Positions 33,120-58,528 of a stretch of 64,000 nt of DNA are shown here, piece by piece (position 1 is the stretch's first letter; each line of letters begins with the position of its first letter). The notes beneath the pieces were generated by a model. That model saw only the letters and a program-made list of their open reading frames with translations, searched no databases and had not been told where the DNA came from. This stretch comes from Octopus vulgaris. Taxonomy: Eukaryota. The stretch spans positions 148,490,001 through 148,554,000 of the forward strand of contig OX597814.1 of NCBI GenBank assembly GCA_951406725.2, given 5' to 3'. Made by a program: the position numbers and the translations under genes.

Positions 33120-36100
33120 GAAAAAACTGCGCAAAACTGGAGAGGACACTTCAGTGCTGCTGTAAAAACACGGGAGAAACACGGGAGGTAACAGTCACGA
33201 TTGATAAGTCTATTCAGATTGGCGTAAAATATGGGCGCTACGGGTTACCTCTGACGGTGGGAGGGACTTCCGTGTCTTATTGGTTAGCTACTGCCCACCT
33301 CAAGCTGGGCAGCCCCCAGTTAATAAGGTGCTGACCCGCCACAAGCCGCCTGCTCCATTGGGTGCTTGGAGCTAAGAGTACGACTCGGAAAGCGGCCTGC
33401 AACCTCTGCACCAGGCAAGCAACTAAAAGTCAAGAAAACACCAGTTCTGCGGTTGGCAAGCTGGAATGTCAGGACCATGTGTCCTGGAATATCTGATGAT
33501 CTTCTCAGGATTGAAGACACAAGGAAAACGGCCATCATTGACCGTGAACTAAAGAGGCTCAACATAGATATTGCTGGGCTGCAGGAGACAAGACTTCCCT
33601 CAAACGGCAAACTCAAAGAGCAGGACTTCACCTTCCTTTGGCAGGGAAGAGATCCAGAAGAACCTCGTCAACATGGCGTTGGCTTTGCAGTGAGAAACTC
33701 ACTACCCTCCTCAATAGAACCACCATCGGGAGGCACTGAGCGTATCCTCTCACTGCGCATCTCGACTTCTTCTGACTCAGTACATCAACTCAGCATCTAT
33801 GCTCCCACTCTCTACAGCTCAGAGGAGATCAAGGACCAGTTCTACAAAGATCTCAACTGTGTCATAGAAAATATACCAACGACTGAAAATATCTACCTTC
33901 TAGGGGATTTTAACGCTCGCGTGGGATCTGACCATGATTCGTGGCCCATTTGTGTTGGACACTTTGGTATTGGCAACATGAATGACAATGGTCAGAGACT
34001 ACTCGAATTCTGCACATACCACAACCTGTGCATCACAAACACATTCTTTACCAACAAGCCATCCCACAAGGCATCCTGGAGACATCCAAGATCTCACCAC
34101 TGGCATCAGCTGGATCTCATCATTACACGGAGATCCTTTCTGAATTCTACTCTATTGACCCGCAGTTACCACAGCGCGGATTGTGACACAGACCACTCAC
34201 TAATTAGAAGCAGGGTGAGGATTCTGCCTAAAAAAGTCCATCGCTCCAAGAAAGTGGGCCGACCACGCATCAACACCGCCAGAACCTCGGACCCTACACT
34301 GCGAAAATGTTTTGCTGCTTCTATCAAGGTTGCCCTCAGTAGCTGCCCAACCTCCTCTGCTGAAAGTAGGTGGGACTATATCAGGGAAGCCTTGTATACG
34401 ACATCATTGGATACTTTCGGCATGAGAGAAAGGCAAAACCCAGATTGGTTCAATGCTGGGCTCTCAGAGCTGGAGCCAGTTATCGAAGCAAAGCGTGCAG
34501 CTCTGGTGAAATACAAGAGTGACTCTTCTACAAAGTCACTCGAAGAACTCAGAAGGGCACGAAATAAAACCCAACTGACAGCCAGACGCTGTGCAAATAG
34601 GTATTGGCAGGAAATCTGTCAGAATATCCAATCAGCTGCTGACAGGGGCGACACCCGTGGGATGTATGCCGGTTTGAAGAAGGCCCTCGGTCCATCCGCA
34701 ACCAAGTCAGCCCCTCTGAAATCAACTACTGGAGATCTCATCAGGGATCAAGGCAAGCAAATGGATAGATGGGTGGAGCACTACCAGGATCTCTACTCAC
34801 GGGAGACCACAGTGGCTGAGGCTGCAGTCGAGAGTGTCAAGATCTTGCCAGTCATGTGCGAACTTGACAGTCCGCCATCTATATCAGAGCTCACCAAAGC
34901 TGTTGACTCCCTAGCAAGAAATAAGGCTCCGGGAAAAGACGGCATCCCCTCAGAGATCATCAAAGCCGGCAAAAACACCATCCTGCTTCGGCACCTTCAT
35001 GAGCTTCTGTGTCAGTGCTGGGAAGAGGGTACAGTCCCTCAGGATATGCGGGATGCCAACATCATTACGCTTTACAAAAACAAAGGTGACCGTGGTGATT
35101 GTAACAACTACCGAGGTATATCCCTTCTAAGCACTGTTGGAAAGACCTTTGCCCGCGTTATCCTGGCCAGGCTACAACTACTTGCTTCTCGAATCTATCC
35201 GGAATCGCAGTGTGGCTTTAGAAGAAGCAGATCAACTATCGATATGATATTCTCCATACGCCAACTTCAGGAGAAGTCCAGAGAGCAGAAAATGCCATTA
35301 TATATAGCCTTTATTGATCTAACAAAGGCTTTTGACTTGGTAAGCAGAACAGGCCTCTTCCTCCTGCTCCAAAAAATCGGATGTCCACCAAAGCTGCTGA
35401 GGATCATCAAGTCTTTCCATGATGACATGCAAGGCACCATACAGCACAACGGTTCAACATCAGCCGCCTTCCAAATAAAAAACGGGGTAAAGCAAGGCTG
35501 TGTCCTCGTTCCTACATTGTTTGGCATCTTCTTCTCACTCTTACTTTCACATGCCTTTCGGACATCAGATGATGGAGTGTTTCTGCACCGTAGAAGTGAC
35601 GGGAAACTGTTCAATCTCTCGCGTCTGCGTGCCAAGATCAAAATCAGAAAAGTCCTGATCAAGGAGATGTTATTTGCTGATGATGCCGCTCTGGTAACAC
35701 ACACAGAAGAAGCCCTCCAAAGGCTCATTAACTGTTTTGAGCAAGCATGTAACGACTTTGGCTTAGCTATCAGCCTTAAGAAGACCAACATCATGGGCCA
35801 GGCTACATCAGACATCCCAAACATACACATTGGAGACCACAGATTACAAGAGGTGGAGAAGTTTACCTATCTGGGCTCTACCGTTGCCCACAACCTATCC
35901 CTTGACGCTGAGCTCAATATACGCATTGGCAAGGCAGCTGCTGCGATGGCCCAACTCTCCAAACGGGCTTGGGACAACAATAAGCTGACCAAGACCACGA
36001 AAATGAAGATCTACCAGGCATGTGTACTCAGCACTCTACTGTATGGAAGCGAGACCTGGACGCTATACACACGCCAAGAGCGTCGCCTAAACATCTTTCA

Positions 36101-36705
36101 CCTGCGCTGCTTCCGAAAAATCCTCCGCATCAAATGGCAGAATCATATCCCCAACAAAGATGTCCTCAGGCAAGCAGGAACACCAAGCATGTTTGCACTC
36201 CTCACCCAAAGACGTATGAGATGGCTTGGGCATGTTAGCTGTATGAAAGATGGCAGAATCCCCAAGGACATAGTCTACGGAGAGCTTGCTAGGGGTACTA
36301 GGTCTGTGGGTAAACCGATCTTAGGTTACAGGGATGTTTGCAAAAGGGATATGAAGGCCTGCAACATCAATATTAGCGGTTGGGAGGCAGTTGGCGGCAA
36401 CCGTGGAGAAAGGCGACGTACAGTAAAAGAGGGAATACAAAAAGAGTGACAGAGAGAGAGAGGAGAAATGGAAAGAAAGGAAGAGACGTAAACAAGAGAC
36501 TATGGCACTACAACCAGCCAGGAACAGTCTTCGCTATATTTGCGGTACCTGCCAGAGGGAGTGTTTGTCCAGGATAGGACTACACAGCCACAGCAGGAAA
36601 TGTATCAGGACATGAAATATAAAAGCCGGACTAGACTATAAAAAAAAAAAAATGCGCAACTGCATTGTCTCCCGAGACAGAAAGGATGCCAATACAATAC
36701 AATAT
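33120..36705 (+). mobile_element. Near full-length RTE-clade LINE inserted in (TA)n
   Basis: Short 5' UTR, single APE+RT ORF, 3' UTR with a tgtctc-cc-gagaca stem-loop and (AATAC)n tail; (TA)n on both sides. Confidence 0.93.
33366..36449 (+). CDS. RTE polyprotein: AP endonuclease plus reverse transcriptase (start uncertain; C-terminus continues in another frame to 36615)
   Basis: APE motifs WNVRT, LQETR, IYAPT, GDFNA, LDLI, TDH. RT motifs KAPGKDGIP, NYRGISLLS, QCGFR, FIDLTKAFD, GVKQGC, LFADD, FTYLGS, LLYGSETW, RWLGHV. Confidence 0.95.
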   Translation: MELRVRLGKRPATSAPGKQLKVKKTPVLRLASWNVRTMCPGISDDLLRIEDTRKTAIIDRELKRLNIDIAGLQETRLPSNGKLKEQDFTFLWQGRDPEEPRQHGVGFAVRNSLPSSIEPPSGGTERILSLRISTSSDSVHQLSIYAPTLYSSEEIKDQFYKDLNCVIENIPTTENIYLLGDFNARVGSDHDSWPICVGHFGIGNMNDNGQRLLEFCTYHNLCITNTFFTNKPSHKASWRHPRSHHWHQLDLIITRRSFLNSTLLTRSYHSADCDTDHSLIRSRVRILPKKVHRSKKVGRPRINTARTSDPTLRKCFAASIKVALSSCPTSSAESRWDYIREALYTTSLDTFGMRERQNPDWFNAGLSELEPVIEAKRAALVKYKSDSSTKSLEELRRARNKTQLTARRCANRYWQEICQNIQSAADRGDTRGMYAGLKKALGPSATKSAPLKSTTGDLIRDQGKQMDRWVEHYQDLYSRETTVAEAAVESVKILPVMCELDSPPSISELTKAVDSLARNKAPGKDGIPSEIIKAGKNTILLRHLHELLCQCWEEGTVPQDMRDANIITLYKNKGDRGDCNNYRGISLLSTVGKTFARVILARLQLLASRIYPESQCGFRRSRSTIDMIFSIRQLQEKSREQKMPLYIAFIDLTKAFDLVSRTGLFLLLQKIGCPPKLLRIIKSFHDDMQGTIQHNGSTSAAFQIKNGVKQGCVLVPTLFGIFFSLLLSHAFRTSDDGVFLHRRSDGKLFNLSRLRAKIKIRKVLIKEMLFADDAALVTHTEEALQRLINCFEQACNDFGLAISLKKTNIMGQATSDIPNIHIGDHRLQEVEKFTYLGSTVAHNLSLDAELNIRIGKAAAAMAQLSKRAWDNNKLTKTTKMKIYQACVLSTLLYGSETWTLYTRQERRLNIFHLRCFRKILRIKWQNHIPNKDVLRQAGTPSMFALLTQRRMRWLGHVSCMKDGRIPKDIVYGELARGTRSVGKPILGYRDVCKRDMKACNINISGWEAVGGNRGERRRTVKEGIQKE

Positions 36706-47948: not shown

Positions 47949-47951
<3 letters not shown>

Positions 47952-48100
47952 TTGTGTGGTGAGTAGCTTCCTTACGAACTACATGGTTCCGGGTTCAGTC
48001 CCACCGCGCGGCACCTTCAAGCACGTGTCTTCTTCTATAGCCTCGGGCCGACCTAATCCTTGAAAGTGGATTAGGTAGACGGAAACTGACACAAGCCCGT
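47949..48100 (+). mobile_element. SINE family B head; its downstream TA tract abuts the palindromic Penelope-like element
   Basis: gtggttgtgtggtgagtagc...ccgggttcagtcccac...tcttctatagcctcgggccgacc...gacggaaactga, as at 27131-27283. Confidence 0.75.
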
Positions 48101-48112
48101 TATCTATATATA

Positions 48113-51100
48113 TATAAAATATTATTAGGGACAAAACCACTATTTTGCAAAACAAACAAGGAAAGACTTAATCAATACATAAAATTTTAATAAATAGTCA
48201 AAAAAACCGCCACTACAATTGTTTCTTGTCTTGATCGACAATCTTCAGGTGGACTTCCAATCTAAAATATCAATATTTTAAAATATAAAAATAATAATTT
48301 TAAAATAATTAAAGTATTAATGAAAAATATAAATATATAATCCATATATAACCTATATATAATCCATATATAATCAATATATAAACAATATATAAACTAA
48401 AATAAACCTATCAACAATTAAATATAAAATATAAAATATAAAATATAAAATATAAAACAAAACAAAAAAATAATAATAATATAATAATAAACTATATATA
48501 CACCCATACACATATAAATAATTATATATAACCATATCTAACTACATACACTAAATCACACACCTATATATATATCCCTATACATACACATAAAAACGTC
48601 TAGGCAACTATAAATAAATAAAATAGCTAAATACTTCAACACAATACTTATTCATACTCCCACACACACACATACAACCCACAATCCCGCTCTAGAAACG
48701 GACATCACTTAAAATTATGAACGGAGAAATGGAATAAATGGAATTAAACATTATATTCACTTGGTAAAACGAACACTACTTAAAAATTATGAATGAAACA
48801 ATGCAATAAAACAACAGACATCGCAAATAGACACAAATTACTACGAATTCCTTAACAAACCTACCATGATAAACCAAAACTCATAAAAACATAAAATGAT
48901 AAAATCTCCCTTTACTAAACTCTATAACATACCTATATAGCAATCCCCCTAACCTAAACATTCACACACAAATACACACACGTAAACCACACACCCACGA
49001 CATATACAAATACCCACCCCACTTACACATACCTATACATACATATAAACCTCAACATATACTCCAAAAACCCACTCAACCCCACACAGACAAATAAACA
49101 CATACATCCCCAAACCTAAATAGCAAACCCATAAACACATTCACACACAAATATACATACGTAAAACACACACCATATACATATACATACTCACACAAAC
49201 TTGACATATACAACAATATTAACACACCCACATTCATACAGATAAACAAACTACACAACCAAAATACGCACACACTCACACACAATCCCACATACATAAA
49301 CACTCCAAAGAAAAACAACATTATTACACATAATACGATATATAAAATACATCGTAAGTAACCAGAATATCAAAAATAATAATATGACATAAGGAGAAAT
49401 AATATACATACTTTCAAGTCAGTTTCAAAATATGAAGTGAAATTAAATTCTAATCCGTTAAAAACATCAAACCAAATTACGTTACCATAGGAACATAACT
49501 TATGTATAAAAAAAGAATACGCTCTATGGAAGCAAACCTCACTTAAAATTATGAATGGAGAAATAGAATAAATGGAATTAAAAATTATATACACGCGGTA
49601 AACCAACAATATTTTTAAAAAATTATGAATGGATTCTTTTATAAAACTACCATGATAAACTAAAACTCACAAAAACATAAATGATAAAACCTCCCTTTAC
49701 TAAACACTATAACATACTTATATAGCAATCACTTTAACCTATACATTCACACACAAATACACACACGTAAACCACACACCCATAACAAATACAAACACCC
49801 ACCCCACTCACACACACCCACAAGTACATATAAGCCTCAACATATACACCAAACAAAATTACGTTACCAAGGAACTTAACATATGTATAAAAAGTATTAC
49901 CGCTCTGTAAACGAACATCTTTTAAAATTATGAATGGAGAAATGGAATAAATGGAATTAAAAATAATATTCACGTGGCAAAACGAACACCACTCAAAAAT
50001 TATGAATGAAACAATGTAATAAAACAACAAACATCGAAAATAGACAAATTACCACAAATTCCCTAAAAAAACCGTGATAAACCAAAACTCTTAAAAACAT
50101 ATAACGATAAAATCTCCTTTGCTAATCTCTATAACAAACCTATATAGCAATCCCCCTAACCTAAACATTCACACACAAATACACACACGTAAACCACAGA
50201 CCCACGACTTATACAAATACCCACCTCACTCACACATACCTATACTAACTTATAAACCTCAATATACACCAAAAACCCACTCCCTCCCCACACAGACAAC
50301 TTAACACATACATCCCCAAACCTAAATAACAAACCCATATACACATTCACACACAAACACACACACACACGCAAAACACACACACACAACAGATACATAT
50401 ACTCCCTCACATATACGCATATACATACTCACTAAACTCGATATATACAACAATATTTACACACCCACACTCATACAGATAAATAAATTATACAACTAAA
50501 AACTCACACACAATCTCATATACATAAACACTCCAATGAAAAACAACATTAAATACATCGTAATTAACCAGAATATCAAAAATAACAATATGACATAAGG
50601 AGAAATAAAATACATGCTTACAAGTCAGTTTCAAATTATGAAGTGAAATTAAATTCTAAGCCGTTAAAAAAATCAAACCAAAATTACGTTACCATAGAAA
50701 TATAACTTATGTATAAAAAGAATACGCACCATGGAAAGTAAACGTCATTTAAAATTATGAATGGAGAAATAGAATAAATGGAACTAAAAACTATATCCAC
50801 ATGGCAAACCAACACTACTTAAAAAAAAAAAATTCATTCACAATTTAAACGACGTTCGCCTCCACAGCGCTACGTATTAGCCTCAATATATACACCGGTG
50901 ATTCGCTTTCACATCCGTGCGGATGGGTGAGAGTATACATTGAGTGTAGTGATGGGGCTCCCTTTACTATACACATTTGTACCTGTGTGGTAGTCTCCAT
51001 GTGTATATTCACGCACGGGTATAAATGCGGGGGGTACACGCGCACGGCATGTGCGTGTACCCCCTCACATGTACATGTGCATGCTAGTTGGGCTCGATAT

Positions 51101-51838
51101 GTGCAACGGTGTAATCGCGCCCGCATACATGCAGATGGGCGAACTGCACAATCAAAATACGCACACGTGTGTGTGTGCGTTCCTTGGTTGTGCAGTTCAC
51201 CCATCTGGGTGTGAGTGGGTGTAAGCGTATTGCTGTGGATGTCGAGCTTAATACGTATGTATATGAGTGTGTATTGGGGGGTTGTACGTATTTGTTGTGT
51301 GCATGTGCTTCACGCACGTGCGTCCGTGTATGGATGAATATATGGGGATTGCTATGTGGGTGTAAATTGGGTATGGAGGGGGGAGTTTTGTCATTGTATG
51401 GGTGTGGGTTTCATTTGTGATGGTGGTTTGTTGGTGATTTTTGGTATGTTCTGTATATTTGGGTTAGTTATGTATTATTCTTGTGTGTATAATTGTATAC
51501 ATATATGATTGGTGTGAGTGGGATTGCGCCCATTTTTGGGGATGTATGTGTTCATTTGTCCGTGTGGGGCGGGAGTGGCCGTTTGGTGTATATGTTGAGG
51601 CTCACTTGCAATTCCAGGTACGCGCGAATGAAGTGGGCACTTATATTTGTTATGGGTGTGTGTACTTTATTATAACAGACAATACCCAAATAAAATCTGT
51701 CAATTCAACATACCAAATAAAAAACAAAGGGATCGTAAACATTCACACATACATACAAAACTCAATAAATACACCACTAAATAACACCCATCAACATATA
51801 AATATATCCTCCAAAATACATATAACAAATGCATAATA
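48113..51838. repeat. Left arm (3726 bp) of the inverted repeat; internally repetitive 3' UTR/pLTR
   Basis: Mirror of 53609-57533. Internal modules such as aaattatgaa[t/c]ggagaaat[g/a]gaataaatggaa recur near 48710, 49545, 49925 and 50750. Confidence 0.95.
48210..48252 (-). ncRNA. Minimal type I hammerhead ribozyme (sense to the ORF)
   Basis: ccac CTGAAGA ttgtc-gatcaa-gacaa GAAA caattg TA gtgg on the - strand: intact core with palindromic stem III. Confidence 0.9.
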
Positions 51839-52092
51839 AAAATACATAATAAAATAAAATAAAAATAAAAAAATATATAATTAAAGAAAAAAAAAAAACC
51901 TAATATAAATTATTAAAGTTTTAACATACCATAAACTGTTATATTAATATACATTAAAAATGAACTAATTAAAACAAAGAAATATCAATAAAGACTAACT
52001 ATAATTAAAGCCTAGACTACATAACCAAATAAATATAATTATCTAAACTAATTTAAACTAAACTAAAGTAACCTAATAGGGAACTATTAATG

Positions 52093-53608
52093 CTATTTAT
52101 CATGAAACTTATTATATAGGTAAAGTAACTTATGTCTGCATTTTATTTTGCGCTCTTCACCAGTATTAAGTAAATTATCATACTTATAAAATAAAATTTC
52201 TTTAAACTCATTAGAGCATAAATAACAACAATTAGCTCCTATAGTATATGATTTAGTTTTACAAATTATTTCCCAAATTAAACTATAATTAATATTTAGT
52301 GATTTAAGACTCCAAATGTACTTACTAAGTCCGGTTGAGTTGATTAAGTTTTTATTTTTAAAAGAATTCATATGTTGTGCGATTCTTAGTTTTATTTTTG
52401 AGGAAGTAGAACCTATATAAACCGCTTTTGGGTAATTATTATTCTTAAAGTTATTATCATGTAATGTAACTATACATTTATACACTACATCGTTAATATC
52501 ACAATTATTATTTAATATACAATTAGATTTATCTCTACATGTACAATTAATATAAGTCTTATCATTATTAATATTATTATCAAATAATTTCTTTTTATAA
52601 AAATTATTCAGTTTATATTTATTAAATGAAGAAATAATGTTACCAACATTATTAGTGGTAGAATAACCTACTCCAAAATTATTAAAAGAGAAAATGTTTC
52701 TATATTTACGATTATCTCTAATAAATAGTTCTATAACATCTAAAATCTCTTTAATAATATTCGTTTTTACTTGATCTCCATAAGGAACTATTAACCAAAT
52801 TTTATTCTTATTAACCTTATTATTATTATCATTATTATAAATATATTTATAATTCTTTATTTTATTAAAATTATTATCAGAATTATATCTATGTACAGCA
52901 TTTAAGGAATTATTAATATTATTAATTTTATCAATATAATTATTATAATAATTATTAAATTTATTTTTATTTTTATTATTCTTACTTGTATTATTATTAT
53001 TATTATATTTATTATTATTATTATTATTATTCTTATTTATATTTTTATCATTTTTATTATTTTTTTTATAATATCTATTATTTTTACCACTAAACCTAAC
53101 AAAATTATAATTATTATTAGAAGTATCTCGAAAATTATCATTTAAATCTTTATCACTAATATTATAAAATTTAATATTCCTATTATAACCTGCCCCTCTA
53201 AGGGCCTCATTATAATAATTAGCATGTTTATTAAAAATCTCTATATCATAAGAGAGTAATGAAATACGTTTACTTATATTATTAATCAACGATTTTTTAA
53301 TAGAAAATTGGTGATTACTATTAACATTTATATATCTAAGGTTCTCATTAAGTTTATGATATGGTTGTGTTTTACCTGTAATAAGATTAAAATTAACATC
53401 TAAATAATTAACATTATAATTCTCCTTATATATAGTAATACTTAAACCATATCTTTTAAAGAAACTATATAGTTTTTTCTTATATACTTCTAGATTCCTA
53501 GAAGTATTCTAGATTCCTTGAATAAATTTATAACGATTTTTATCTTTAATATTATTAAACCATTTCAATGTATTGTTATTACTAAACCATAATTTTAATA
53601 TAAAATAA
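52093..53608 (-). pseudogene. Penelope-like ORF relic: RT motifs 6-7, thumb, Asn-rich linker, CxCx5C, GIY-YIG endonuclease; RT core deleted
   Basis: The frame is open from 53508 to 52093 (471 aa): KKKLYSFFKRYGLSITI, VNYLDVNFNL, PYHK..RYINVNSNH, YNEALRGAGY, CTCRDKSNC, VVYKC..YIGST..KLRIAQH, LSKYIWSLK, CYLCSNE, KCRHK. Upstream LKWFNNIKDKNRYKFIQ is followed by a stop at 53511-53509. Confidence 0.9.
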
Positions 53609-56600
53609 TATTATGCATTTGTTATATGTATTTTGGAGGATATATTTATATGTTGATGGGTGTTATTTAGTGGTGTATTTATTGAGTTTTGTATGTATGT
53701 GTGAATGTTTACGATCCCTTTGTTTTTTATTTGGTATGTTGAATTGACAGATTTTATTTGGGTATTGTCTGTTATAATAAAGTACACACACCCATAACAA
53801 ATATAAGTGCCCACTTCATTCGCGCGTACCTGGAATTGCAAGTGAGCCTCAACATATACACCAAACGGCCACTCCCGCCCCACACGGACAAATGAACACA
53901 TACATCCCCAAAAATGGGCGCAATCCCACTCACACCAATCATATATGTATACAATTATACACACAAGAATAATACATAACTAACCCAAATATACAGAACA
54001 TACCAAAAATCACCAACAAACCACCATCACAAATGAAACCCACACCCATACAATGACAAAACTCCCCCCTCCATACCCAATTTACACCCACATAGCAATC
54101 CCCATATATTCATCCATACACGGACGCACGTGCGTGAAGCACATGCACACAACAAATACGTACAACCCCCCAATACACACTCATATACATACGTATTAAG
54201 CTCGACATCCACAGCAATACGCTTACACCCACTCACACCCAGATGGGTGAACTGCACAACCAAGGAACGCACACACACACGTGTGCGTATTTTGATTGTG
54301 CAATTCGCCCATCTGCATGTATGCGGGCGCGATTACACCGTTGCACATATCGAGCCCAACTAGCATGCATATGTACATGTGAGGGCGTACACGCACATGC
54401 CGTGCGCGTGTACCCCCTGCATTTATACCCGTGCGTGAATATACACATGGAGACTACCACACAGGTACAAATGTGTATAGTAAAGAGAGCCCCATCACTA
54501 CACTCAATGTATACTCTCACCCATCCGCACGGATGTGAAAGCGAATCACCGGTGTATATATTGAGGCTAATACGTAGCGCTGTGGAGGCGAACGTCGTTT
54601 AAATTGTGAATGAATGGGTGGAGTTGGGAATTGTAACCGGGTGGTGGGCTAGCGTTGCTTAGAATTGGGAATGGAATAGTGTAGTAGAATGGCAGGCATC
54701 GAGAATAGACTTGGGTTACTGCAAATTGTTTGTTAGAGCTGCCAAGATGAGCTAAAGCTCATAAATGTATATAATAATTTATCATGGTAGTTTTATTAAA
54801 GAATCCATTCATAATAAATTTTTTTAAGTAGTGTTGGTTTGCCATGTGGATATAGTTTTTAGTTCCATTTATTCTATTTCTCCATTCATAATTTTAAATG
54901 ACGTTTACTTTCCATGGCGCGTATTCTTTTTATACATAAGTTATATTTCTATGGTAACGTAATTTTGGTTTGATTTTTTTAACGGCTTAGAATTTAATTT
55001 CACTTCATAATTTGAAACTGACTTGTAAGTATGTATTTTATTTCTCCTTATGTCATATTGTTATTTTTGATATTCTGGTTAATTACGATGTATTTAATGT
55101 TGTTTTTCATTGGAGTGTTTATGTATATGAGATTGTGTGTGAGTTTTTAGTTGTATAATTTATTTATCTGTATGAGTGTGGGTGTAAATATTGTTGTATA
55201 TATCGAGTTTAGTGAGTATGTATATGCGTATATGTGAGGGAGTATATGTATCTGTTGTGTGTGTGTGTTTTGTGTGTGTGTGTGTTTGTGTGTGAATGTG
55301 TATATGGGTTTGTTATATAGGTTTGGGGATGTATGTGTTGATTTGTCTGTGTGGGGAGGGGAGTGGGTTTTTGGTGTATATTGAGGTTTATAAGTTAGTA
55401 TAGGTATGTGTGAGTGAGGTGGGTATTTGTATAAGTCGTGGGTCTGTGGTTTACGTGTGTGTATTTGTGTGTGAATGTTTAGGTTAGGGGGATTGCTATA
55501 TAGGTTTGTTATAGAGATTAGCAAAGGGAGATTTTATCGTTATATGTTTTTAAGAGTTTTGGTTTATCATGGTTTTTTTAGGGAATTTGTGGTAATTTGT
55601 CTATTTTCGATGTTTGTTGTTTTATTACATTGTTTCATTCATAATTTTTGAGTGGTGTTCGTTTTGCCACGTGAATATTATTTTTAATTCCATTTATTCC
55701 ATTTCTCCATTCATAATTTTAAAAGATGTTCGTTTACAGAGCGGTAATACTTTTTATACATATGTTAAGTTCCTTGGTAACGTAATTTTGTTTGGTGTAT
55801 ATGTTGAGGCTTATATGTACTTGTGGGTGTGTGTGAGTGGGGTGGGTGTTTGTATTTGTTATGGGTGTGTGGTTTACGTGTGTGTATTTGTGTGTGAATG
55901 TTTAGGTTAGGGGGATTGCTATATAGGTTTGTTATAGAGTTTAGCAAAGGGAGGTTTTATCATTTATGTTTTTGTGAGTTTTAGTTTATCATGGTAGTTT
56001 TATAAAAGAATCCATTCATAATTTTTTTAAAATATTGTTGGTTTACCGCGTGTATATAATTTTTAATTCCATTTATTCTATTTCTCCATTCATAATTTTA
56101 AGTGAGGTTTGCTTCCATAGAGCGTATTCTTTTTTTATACATAAGTTATGTTCCTATGGTAACGTAATTTGGTTTGATGTTTTTAACGGATTAGAATTTA
56201 ATTTCACTTCATATTTTGAAACTGACTTGAAAGTATGTATATTATTTCTCCTTATGTCATATTATTATTTTTGATATTCTGGTTACTTACGATGTATTTT
56301 ATATATCGTATTATGTGTAATAATGTTGTTTTTCTTTGGAGTGTTTATGTATGTGGGATTGTGTGTGAGTGTGTGCGTATTTTGGTTGTGTAGTTTGTTT
56401 ATCTGTATGAATGTGGGTGTGTTAATATTGTTGTATATGTCAAGTTTGTGTGAGTATGTATATGTATATGGTGTGTGTTTTACGTATGTATATTTGTGTG
56501 TGAATGTGTTTATGGGTTTGCTATTTAGGTTTGGGGATGTATGTGTTTATTTGTCTGTGTGGGGTTGAGTGGGTTTTTGGAGTATATGTTGAGGTTTATA

Positions 56601-57533
56601 TGTATGTATAGGTATGTGTAAGTGGGGTGGGTATTTGTATATGTCGTGGGTGTGTGGTTTACGTGTGTGTATTTGTGTGTGAATGTTTAGGTTAGGGGGA
56701 TTGCTATATAGGTATGTTATAGAGTTTAGTAAAGGGAGATTTTATCATTTTATGTTTTTATGAGTTTTGGTTTATCATGGTAGGTTTGTTAAGGAATTCG
56801 TAGTAATTTGTGTCTATTTGCGATGTCTGTTGTTTTATTGCATTGTTTCATTCATAATTTTTAAGTAGTGTTCGTTTTACCAAGTGAATATAATGTTTAA
56901 TTCCATTTATTCCATTTCTCCGTTCATAATTTTAAGTGATGTCCGTTTCTAGAGCGGGATTGTGGGTTGTATGTGTGTGTGTGTGGGAGTATGAATAAGT
57001 ATTGTGTTGAAGTATTTAGCTATTTTATTTATTTATAGTTGCCTAGACGTTTTTATGTGTATGTATAGGGATATATATATAGGTGTGTGATTTAGTGTAT
57101 GTAGTTAGATATGGTTATATATAATTATTTATATGTGTATGGGTGTATATATAGTTTATTATTATATTATTATTATTTTTTTGTTTTGTTTTATATTTTG
57201 TATTTTATATTTTATATTTTATATTTAATTGTTGATAGGTTTATTTTAGTTTATATATTGTTTATATATTGATTATATATGGATTATATATAGGTTATAT
57301 ATGGATTATATATTTATATTTTTCATTAATACTTTAATTATTTTAAAATTATTATTTTTATATTTTAAAATATTGATATTTTAGATTGGAAGTCCACCTG
57401 AAGATTGTCGATCAAGACAAGAAACAATTGTAGTGGCGGTTTTTTTGACTATTTATTAAAATTTTATGTATTGATTAAGTCTTTCCTTGTTTGTTTTGCA
57501 AAATAGTGGTTTTGTCTCTAATAATATTTTATA
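53609..57533. repeat. Right arm (3925 bp) of the inverted repeat
   Basis: Mirror of the left arm plus about 200 bp (about 54616-54815) that the left arm lacks. Confidence 0.95.
57394..57436 (+). ncRNA. Minimal type I hammerhead ribozyme (identical mirror copy)
   Basis: ccac CTGAAGA ttgtc gatcaa gacaa GAAA caattg TA gtgg. Confidence 0.9.
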
Positions 57534-57612
57534 ATATTTTACTATAAAATTGGATTTAATCCTAAATCTGATTTTTTTCCCTGTAAATTTGGATTTATTC
57601 CCTAATATTTAT

Positions 57613-57670
<58 letters not shown>

Positions 57671-57722: not shown

Positions 57723-58528
57723 ATACAATCGAGGTCAGATCCGCCTGTTATCATAGTAATGAAACTAAACCACGCAAAGTGTAGCCCCCCGGCAATGATT
57801 GACCGTGAAGTTAGTTGTTCATGCGCACTAAATTCCAGTTCAATGCCCTCGCTTACAGCAGTGCTTGCAGGGATTGTAGCGTGTGATCGTCGCATTGACC
57901 ATGACAGAGAAAGTCTTCATGATAGTACCATCTAATAAGCCTGCGAAAAGTTGCAGAAGGTGTATGCAGAGGTGTGTATGAGCCGCACACAAGTGTGCCT
58001 GCGGTTCACACGTTTCCAAGATGGCCGTAACATGTCGGTATTTTTGAACGTTCTTAGAGACCAACAAGCAGTATATCTGAGAAAAGCATTGCATGTGTGC
58101 GTGCGGCTGCGAGCGGAATAGTCAAATTACGGTTCAGTTCAGTCAATTATCACTGAAGATATGAATATGAGACACGTGTCTGCCAACTTTGTGCCAAAAC
58201 TGCGTTCAGCTGACTAAAGAGAGACTCGGGTTTTAGTTGCACAAGATTTTCTCGATTGTGCCGAGAACGATGAAAATTTTTTGAAAACATTGTGAAGGCC
58301 TCTGAGCAGGTTTCACCAATCTTTTCCCAACATTTGATGCAGATTCTCTACATAATTTTCTCTCTCATGGTCTATGCGACGCTCCCACGTTACACACTAT
58401 CATTCTAAGCACTTCTGTATACAGTGGAAGTGAGTTCGAACGTTAAAACTCAGTGCACATGTAGGGCGGAGTTCAAGATTAATATGAGCTAAGCGGCTTC
58501 ACTTCGCGTGCTTTAGCTTCGTTTCTAT
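57723..58528 (+). mobile_element. Internally deleted mariner element
   Basis: Imperfect TIRs atagtaatgaaactaaaccacgcaaagtgtagcc and ggcttcacttcgcgtgctttagcttcgtttctat. Internal ITEDMNMRHVSANFVPKLRSAD*RETRVLVAQDFLDCAENDENFLKTL (WVPxxL linker-like) at about 58150-58292. Confidence 0.75.

Follow-up and report, generated by a model that had tools for sequence, protein, structure and literature searches.

The palindrome and its element

The window analysed here is a 64,000-nt stretch of Octopus vulgaris DNA (C1:148490001-148554000) within a 2.8-Gb assembly of 227 contigs, and it contains a 9.4-kb palindrome built from a Penelope-like element (PLE). The two arms (48113-51838 and 53609-57616) are 99.4% identical. 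Self-BLAST resolved them into two inverted blocks, one of 2,724 nt at 99.05% identity (48108-50827/54819-57537) and one of 1,007 nt at 99.5% (50832-51838/53609-54615), and alignment of the arms gave 22 substitutions over 3,731 nt together with five indels of 1–2 nt. Combined with the reading frame found between the arms, these results confirm the description, in an earlier note on this DNA, of two near-identical inverted arms around a GIY-YIG-coding loop. The features are listed below in window coordinates; 3' untranslated region (UTR), pseudo-long terminal repeat (pLTR) and open reading frame (ORF) refer to the sense of the element.

48102-48112, no strand: left (TA)n target remnant, after a sequence that we take to resemble a short interspersed element (SINE)
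48113-51838, minus: left arm, long and linked to the ORF; 3' UTR/pLTR, without a tail
48210-48252, minus: type I minimal hammerhead with a CUGAAGA core and a palindromic stem III, facing outward
48262-50621, minus: retained 2,360-nt GT-AG pLTR intron; donor GTAAGC at 50621, acceptor AG ending at 48262
50622-50644, minus: putative 23-nt first exon; its start site at 50644, deduced from where spliced arms stop, would face outward (left)
51839-52092, minus: loop, the initial 254 nt of the 3' UTR, unmirrored
52093-53506, minus: C-terminal part of an ORF of ~840 aa, from about residue 370
53507-53608, minus: compound junction, made of a short templated insert, an 85-nt piece and 5 linker bases
53609 to about 57530-57533, plus: right arm, inverted; 3' UTR/pLTR
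55002-55024, plus: putative 23-nt first exon, from the A of TCACTT; its start site would face outward (right)
55025-57384, plus: retained 2,360-nt GT-AG pLTR intron; donor GTAAGT, acceptor TTTTAG
57394-57436, plus: type I minimal hammerhead, facing outward; cleavage predicted after 57432
57531-57616, plus: 86-nt tail, the start of the element body, on the right arm alone
57617-57664, no strand: right (TA)n target remnant

The frame in the loop runs 471 aa from stop to stop (52093-53508, minus strand) and carries the GIY-YIG-type motif AVYIGST. The ORF part in the window contains the thumb of the reverse transcriptase (RT), an Asn-rich linker, CxCX5C (CTCRDKSNC), GIY-YIG, CxxC (CYLCSNE) and CxH (CRH), and it lacks the RT catalytic core. 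Pfam gave no passing match for this remnant or for the ORF of an intact relative. The 85-nt piece in the junction (53518-53603) derives from an earlier part of the ORF, and the 53609 junction has a single match in the 2.8-Gb genome.

The arms bear reciprocal lesions. A 199-nt segment of the right arm (54616-54818) is missing from the left arm at 50828-50831, and a patch of ~45 nt in the right arm (55902-55945) looks like the neighbouring internal repeat; each time, the opposite arm has the family state. The sequences flanking the palindrome on the left and right are unrelated, and both end in (TA)n. Together with the 1.8-kb loop, its compound junction and the one-sided tail, these lesions and flanks argue against an assembly error or a fold-back read, as do more than 100 other loci that obey the same one-tail rule (see below) with different junctions. 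Four contig sets compared over 51900-53800 included no listed piece bridging 53609, a result that is uninformative for short-read contigs of other samples and a repeat family. We regard an artefact as extremely unlikely.

The family and its pLTR intron

A genome search with the endonuclease region turned up 16,997 candidates; the 150 that were scored gave 152 matches, roughly 50 of which reached ≥97% identity. For comparison, we extracted 17-kb stretches spanning the 40 best-matching other copies. Several relatives have intact frames of 838–852 aa with RIKWK, DKT, YRDD, AVYIGST, an Asn-rich linker, CxCX5C, CxxC and CxH; CCHH is absent from these frames. RIKWK is one residue away from RWK and occurs together with SDKT, and homologs of the protein show RMRWK and DKT; named homologs come from Argonauta hians and Octopus bimaculoides. 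Insertion was into (TA)n at the window flanks and at nearly all ends examined. The family also has the features of endonuclease-bearing (EN+) PLEs: a single ORF with RT and GIY-YIG in the relatives, of which the window retains the C-terminal part alone, and pLTRs in partial tandem and/or inverted arrangement with an optional tail. The comparison thus upholds the earlier assignment of the locus to a PLE with hammerheads and an inverted pLTR at a 5' truncation.

In the available text of PMC8557442, the Hydra clade is marked by RWK, a change of DKG to DKT, CxCX5C, CxxC/CxH around conserved E and N, a lack of CCHH, and (TA)n. Families listed there, such as Hydra-1_Obim and Penelope-13_HM, share the C-terminal GIY-YIG, DKT, the Cys and His motifs (CxCX5C, CxxC, CxH), the absence of CCHH, (TA)n and the hammerhead layout with the octopus family, and the listing for Penelope-13_HM gives an inverted 5' copy of 966 nt. 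By its motifs, with references compared by eye, the family is a Hydra-clade PLE. It is not generally short (<3 kb), as that clade is described: the unit is 6,310 nt in one copy (L031) and longer in others, in contrast to 1.1–3.0 kb in the families listed in PMC8557442. A 3' UTR of at least 3.6 kb, a multi-kilobase intron and arms of up to 6.6 kb likewise go beyond those listed families, and the hammerhead sequence differs by eye from that of Hydra-1_Obim as given there, pointing to another family. The octopus family is thus a long-pLTR, intron-bearing Hydra variant, and the window locus is a real but dead, single-junction copy of this young family. An older subfamily (~90% in the ORF), represented by L114-L115 (C6:107965465-107976931), is also arranged head to head, so the palindrome habit predates the young burst.

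The earlier note had considered arms of this length unusual, which the family contradicts. An inverted arm was present in 26 of the 40 other young copies, with lengths from 36 to 6,604 nt; it reached at least 2.8 kb in eight copies and at least 3.6 kb in three. Long arms are normal in this family, and they are long because the pLTR holds the 2,360-nt GT-AG intron. Junctions in the 40 copies mostly showed overlaps of 0–3 nt or short inserts. A 24-nt pattern from the ribozyme end had 1,218 exact matches in the genome, 93 of them on C1, where the match list, read by eye, showed 24 pairs that lie within 20 kb and face outward, and none that faces inward; seven of the 24 spanned at least 5 kb.

Several copies are more elaborate. 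At one further locus (C3pair; L112-L113, C3:63968411-63982664) the ORF lies in both arms; this 14-kb insertion also contains a tandem unit, and all of its pLTR ends are identical over ~464 nt. At L053, a unit of ~510 nt occurs three times in the inverted arm and once in the direct arm, and L103, which spans ~14.8 kb, has a triple 1.75-kb repeat common to both arms.

The pLTR intron ends 9 nt ahead of hammerhead helix I, and in the right arm it holds internal repeats of ~1.2 kb that are ~84% alike. Thirteen of the 24 outward pairs on C1 lie just 70–130 nt apart. In these mini-palindromes of ~400 bp, a point 2.36 kb upstream is joined directly to the ribozyme, with the breakpoints precisely at GTAAGT and TTTTAG. 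The donor is shifted by +4 nt in some copies, an alternative of the kind that spliceosomes employ. Across the genome, 510 ends carry the exact splice junction, typically as part of mini-palindromes, and 451 are unspliced. The 51 loci selected by their endonuclease region gave no spliced call; some arms there are unclassable.

The outer limits of the spliced sequence are sharp. Across 80 short loci, 89 of 91 spliced arms stop no more than 23 nt from the donor, 12 of them at exactly 23, which is the A of TCACTT. Of 11 arms that end 23 nt from the donor, eight carry a non-genomic G in place of the genomic C, the trace expected of a cap. These ends point to a capped, spliced mRNA that starts in the pLTR, as in Drosophila virilis Penelope. 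According to the accessible portions of PMC2377424 and PMC4209133, that element, too, has a start site in its pLTR, closely followed by an intron whose end meets hammerhead helix I; it forms partial tandems between inverted repeats that vary in size, and its tail is optional. Its intron measures 75 nt rather than 2,360 nt, and its genomic copies are described in the same portions as retaining the intron, whereas about half of the scored octopus ends are spliced.

The mini-palindromes had 16 different centres among 17. Several subfamily variants occur among them, and both arms agreed in 16 of 16 scorable cases. Given the varied centres and variants, they look made anew each time rather than descended from one spreading lineage. 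They resemble the non-LTR retrozymes described in the available parts of PMC7229834 and bioRxiv 10.64898/2026.07.22.740005, which are likewise short, related to PLEs, non-coding and equipped with type I hammerheads. Those retrozymes are head-to-tail tandems, whereas the octopus units are head-to-head pairs with varied centres, apparently new products of spliced mRNA.

Concordant arms, single tails and their origin

For 46 outward pairs, located on C1, C2 and the initial 64 Mb of C3, each arm was scored as spliced or unspliced. Both arms were unspliced in 26 pairs and both spliced in 20; there was no mixed pair, compared with 22.6 expected if the arms were independent. The same set contained no inward or tandem neighbours.

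The spliced class bears on a model in which self-priming on an antisense RNA makes head-to-head arms. This model, which would explain intron retention too, was based on palindromes seen at the inversion junctions of rotifer Penelope and is favoured in the part of PMC3846280 available to us. An antisense transcript would not be spliced at the sites used here, so the model is disfavoured for the spliced class by the sense-strand splice junction in 510 ends, which occurs on both arms in 20 of the 46 pairs and has a sharp 5' edge. We give it very little credence as an account of the palindromes, although an antisense template could still hold for the unspliced products.

A second regularity concerns the tail, which was present on exactly one arm in 106 of 107 palindromes (79 of 80, and 27 of 27 two-armed loci among 40 more). 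The 79 include a set of 22 for which the rule had been predicted beforehand and held in all 22. The counts leave out L057 and L075 (endonuclease-selected, without a 3' end), the older C6 pair, L035 and L116 (missed by the tail scan, one-tailed on inspection) and, from the set of 40, 13 single-arm or complex loci. In the 24 endonuclease-selected palindromes, the tail lay on the inverted, short arm in 12 and on the ORF-linked, long arm in 12. Among endonuclease-selected copies without an inverted arm, the tail was absent at the 3' end in 12 of 14, suggesting that the start site at the pLTR end is the default when a single cDNA is fixed.

Tail placement is informative about fold-back, in which a single cDNA would copy its own strand into a second arm and the endonuclease would later trim one tail. 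Such copying accounts for the matching splice class and the variants common to both arms; many mini-palindrome centres are near-perfect hairpins, and the available text of PMC8557442 ascribes the tail to endonuclease resolution. The long arm would be the template, yet in 12 of the 24 palindromes the tail is absent from the long arm and present on the short one. Furthermore, the short arms of the window palindrome and of L095 contain sequence missing from their long arms, which a later deletion could explain. We therefore consider fold-back unlikely, if worth keeping in view.

Alternatively, one donor locus could have supplied a separate RNA for each arm, or the arms could have been made alike by later arm-to-arm gene conversion. 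Near-identical copies do occur at other loci, the median difference to the nearest one being 2 of ~464 nt, near within-locus values, and the window contains a conversion-like patch. However, spliced and unspliced ends are about equally common genome-wide and none of the 46 pairs is mixed; moreover, independent RNAs would not yield one tail in 106 of 107 palindromes. Both versions appear decidedly improbable.

The absence of mixed pairs, the one-tail rule and the abundance of spliced ends point instead to a single sense RNA that was primed twice. For the window, we think it likely that the locus is a broken, one-off insertion whose arms were reverse-transcribed from one unspliced sense RNA, primed at both (TA)n cut ends from start sites 86 nt apart, and joined head to head. 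In this scheme, a protein dimer would cut both target strands. Two RTs would start on the same RNA, one from its pLTR end and one from its tail end, the second following the first by strand displacement. The cDNAs would then pair at their 3' ends, through 0–3 nt of microhomology or short inserts, so that each primes second-strand synthesis on the other. With cap-proximal priming on spliced mRNA, both cDNAs would run out after ~170 nt and give mini-palindromes, while priming on unspliced RNA would give multi-kilobase palindromes of the window type and full-length copies. Introns would thus probably be kept because spliced templates yield only short dead ends.

Twin priming of L1, in which both target ends are primed on one RNA and a 5' inversion is joined by microhomology, offers a parallel. 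There the two cDNAs copy non-overlapping parts of the RNA, whereas the octopus arms would copy the same stretch and thereby form a palindrome. In vitro, PAc, a purified PLE protein (Poseidon of Anolis), cuts and extends both strands of AT-rich targets, is predicted to be a dimer, and starts internally at two sites bounding the tail without needing hammerhead cleavage (PMC11167929). PAc belongs to another clade, that study leaves inverted arms unaddressed, and the strict one-tail pairing described here comes from genomic copies.

Several observations weigh against priming of one sense RNA at two paired sites. The start sites used by PAc in vitro did not differ between the strands (PMC11167929), which makes strict pairing of start sites a proposal. 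All of the family evidence comes from one assembly; splicing was seen at the level of genomic copies; and several of the eight terminal Gs could belong to the partner arm. One palindrome, L160, bears both tails. The upstream pLTRs of tandem copies are unspliced, and that of L031 begins upstream of the proposed transcription start, so other templates, such as read-through or circular RNA, must exist. Upstream pLTR and 3' end differ by 0–5 of ~464 nt in 11 copies, a range that overlaps the within-arm and nearest-copy values and so favours neither a circular nor a linear template. Finally, the concordance of the arms also fits fold-back copying or later conversion.

With these points in mind, we lean somewhat towards the view that the family records the Penelope cycle as such: a dimer, one sense RNA, two obligately paired start sites, and cDNAs that complete each other, with introns that are spliced from templates but survive since such templates give dead ends. 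If so, a single mechanism would explain why the pLTR is inverted, why the tail is one-sided and why introns are retained. The available portions of PMC8557442 and PMC3846280 state the origin of inverted pLTRs, one-sided tails and intron retention to be open. The parts of the PLE literature cited here already describe pLTR introns and inverted pLTRs, as well as a tail that often occurs at one end. The literature searched contained no account of spliced PLE ends forming a major genomic class, or of either rule in counted form; older papers on Penelope structure and introns and preprint supplements, which lay outside that search, could bear on novelty. The family makes PLE movement and intron retention countable and testable, and in this respect is more informative than the window locus, itself one dead product among hundreds of mirror-image insertions.

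Hammerhead ribozymes, double-stranded RNA and neighbouring sequences

Each arm contains the same 43-nt type I hammerhead. The earlier statement that both arms are capped by one outward-facing hammerhead therefore stands as to the ribozyme, while "ends in" is approximate: ~95 nt of pLTR follow the ribozyme in each arm, plus the tail on the right. Rfam gave no hammerhead match at gathering score, owing to the CUGAAGA core, and a CTGAYGAN pattern had three matches at chance level, none of them the ribozyme. The layout agrees with hammerheads published for the Hydra clade in the available text of PMC8557442; cleavage here is predicted.

Folded freely alone, the ribozyme did not adopt the hammerhead shape (z about 0), and the predicted pairing probability of stem III within a monomer was 0.002. 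Two ribozymes co-folded at a predicted -22.0 kcal/mol, compared with -6.5 kcal/mol for one. Stem III, being palindromic, is thus predicted to form only in a dimer, and metazoan PLE hammerheads are described as acting as dimers with low activity in the accessible part of PMC4209133. The complement in the opposite arm was predicted to bind the ribozyme at -114.5 kcal/mol. Predicted pairing of stem II rose from ~0.06 in unspliced sequence (window 57354-57454) to 0.74 in spliced sequence (L134), and splicing may gate the ribozyme.

Arm truncations at the predicted cleavage site accounted for 8 of 8 matches (7 loci), with 8 of 10 at +1, 2 of 4 at +2, 5 of 6 at -1, 7 of 10 at -2, and 0 of 1 at -5, the lone distant control. 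The excess is a weak step rather than a sharp peak and hints that some templates are cleaved. The very short palindromes L173-L177 and a tandem pLTR (L101:7250) start at or beside the predicted cleavage site; at L175, both arms do.

These predictions bear on the idea, raised in the earlier note, that the palindrome is a hairpin element, either functional or spreading by itself, and that its read-through RNA undergoes self-cleavage and feeds endogenous small interfering RNA or ADAR. A host read-through transcript would indeed pair over ~3.7 kb, and with seven outward pairs of at least 5 kb on C1, some may lie in introns. However, the 53609 junction is unique and the mini-palindromes have varied centres, which leaves no sign of a hairpin spreading with this junction. 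A self-cleaved 3' end on the hairpin is unsupported as well, given a ribozyme that is predicted to depend on a dimer and to be zipped up by the other arm. The proposed start sites at 55002 (plus) and 50644 (minus) face outward; transcripts that the element itself initiates would thus cover a single arm, and double-stranded RNA (dsRNA) would need an outside promoter. A>G changes in genomic copies numbered 114 per 1,000 A columns, compared with 78 for T>C, 249 for G>A and 367 for C>T; no copy among them showed the hyper-editing imprint of ADAR. No host exon was evident among the window ORFs of at least 170 aa. We consider such an element very unlikely, though the locus may still be a source of small interfering RNA or an ADAR substrate. 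More broadly, the genome carries some hundreds of near-perfect palindromes, among them the 24 outward pairs on C1, and these form a ready list of candidate dsRNA loci.

On its left side (47950-48100), the insertion lies within the (TA)n stretch that ends a presumably SINE-like repeat. A piece of a similar repeat was captured between both arms at L142 (520-675), suggesting template switching to another RNA. Elsewhere in the window, an apparently young long interspersed element has an open frame of 1,040 aa (33327-36449, plus strand) with endonuclease and RVT_1 domains and is presumably RTE-like. The decayed sequence at 57900-58300 bears what we take to be a resemblance to a mariner-type transposase fragment.

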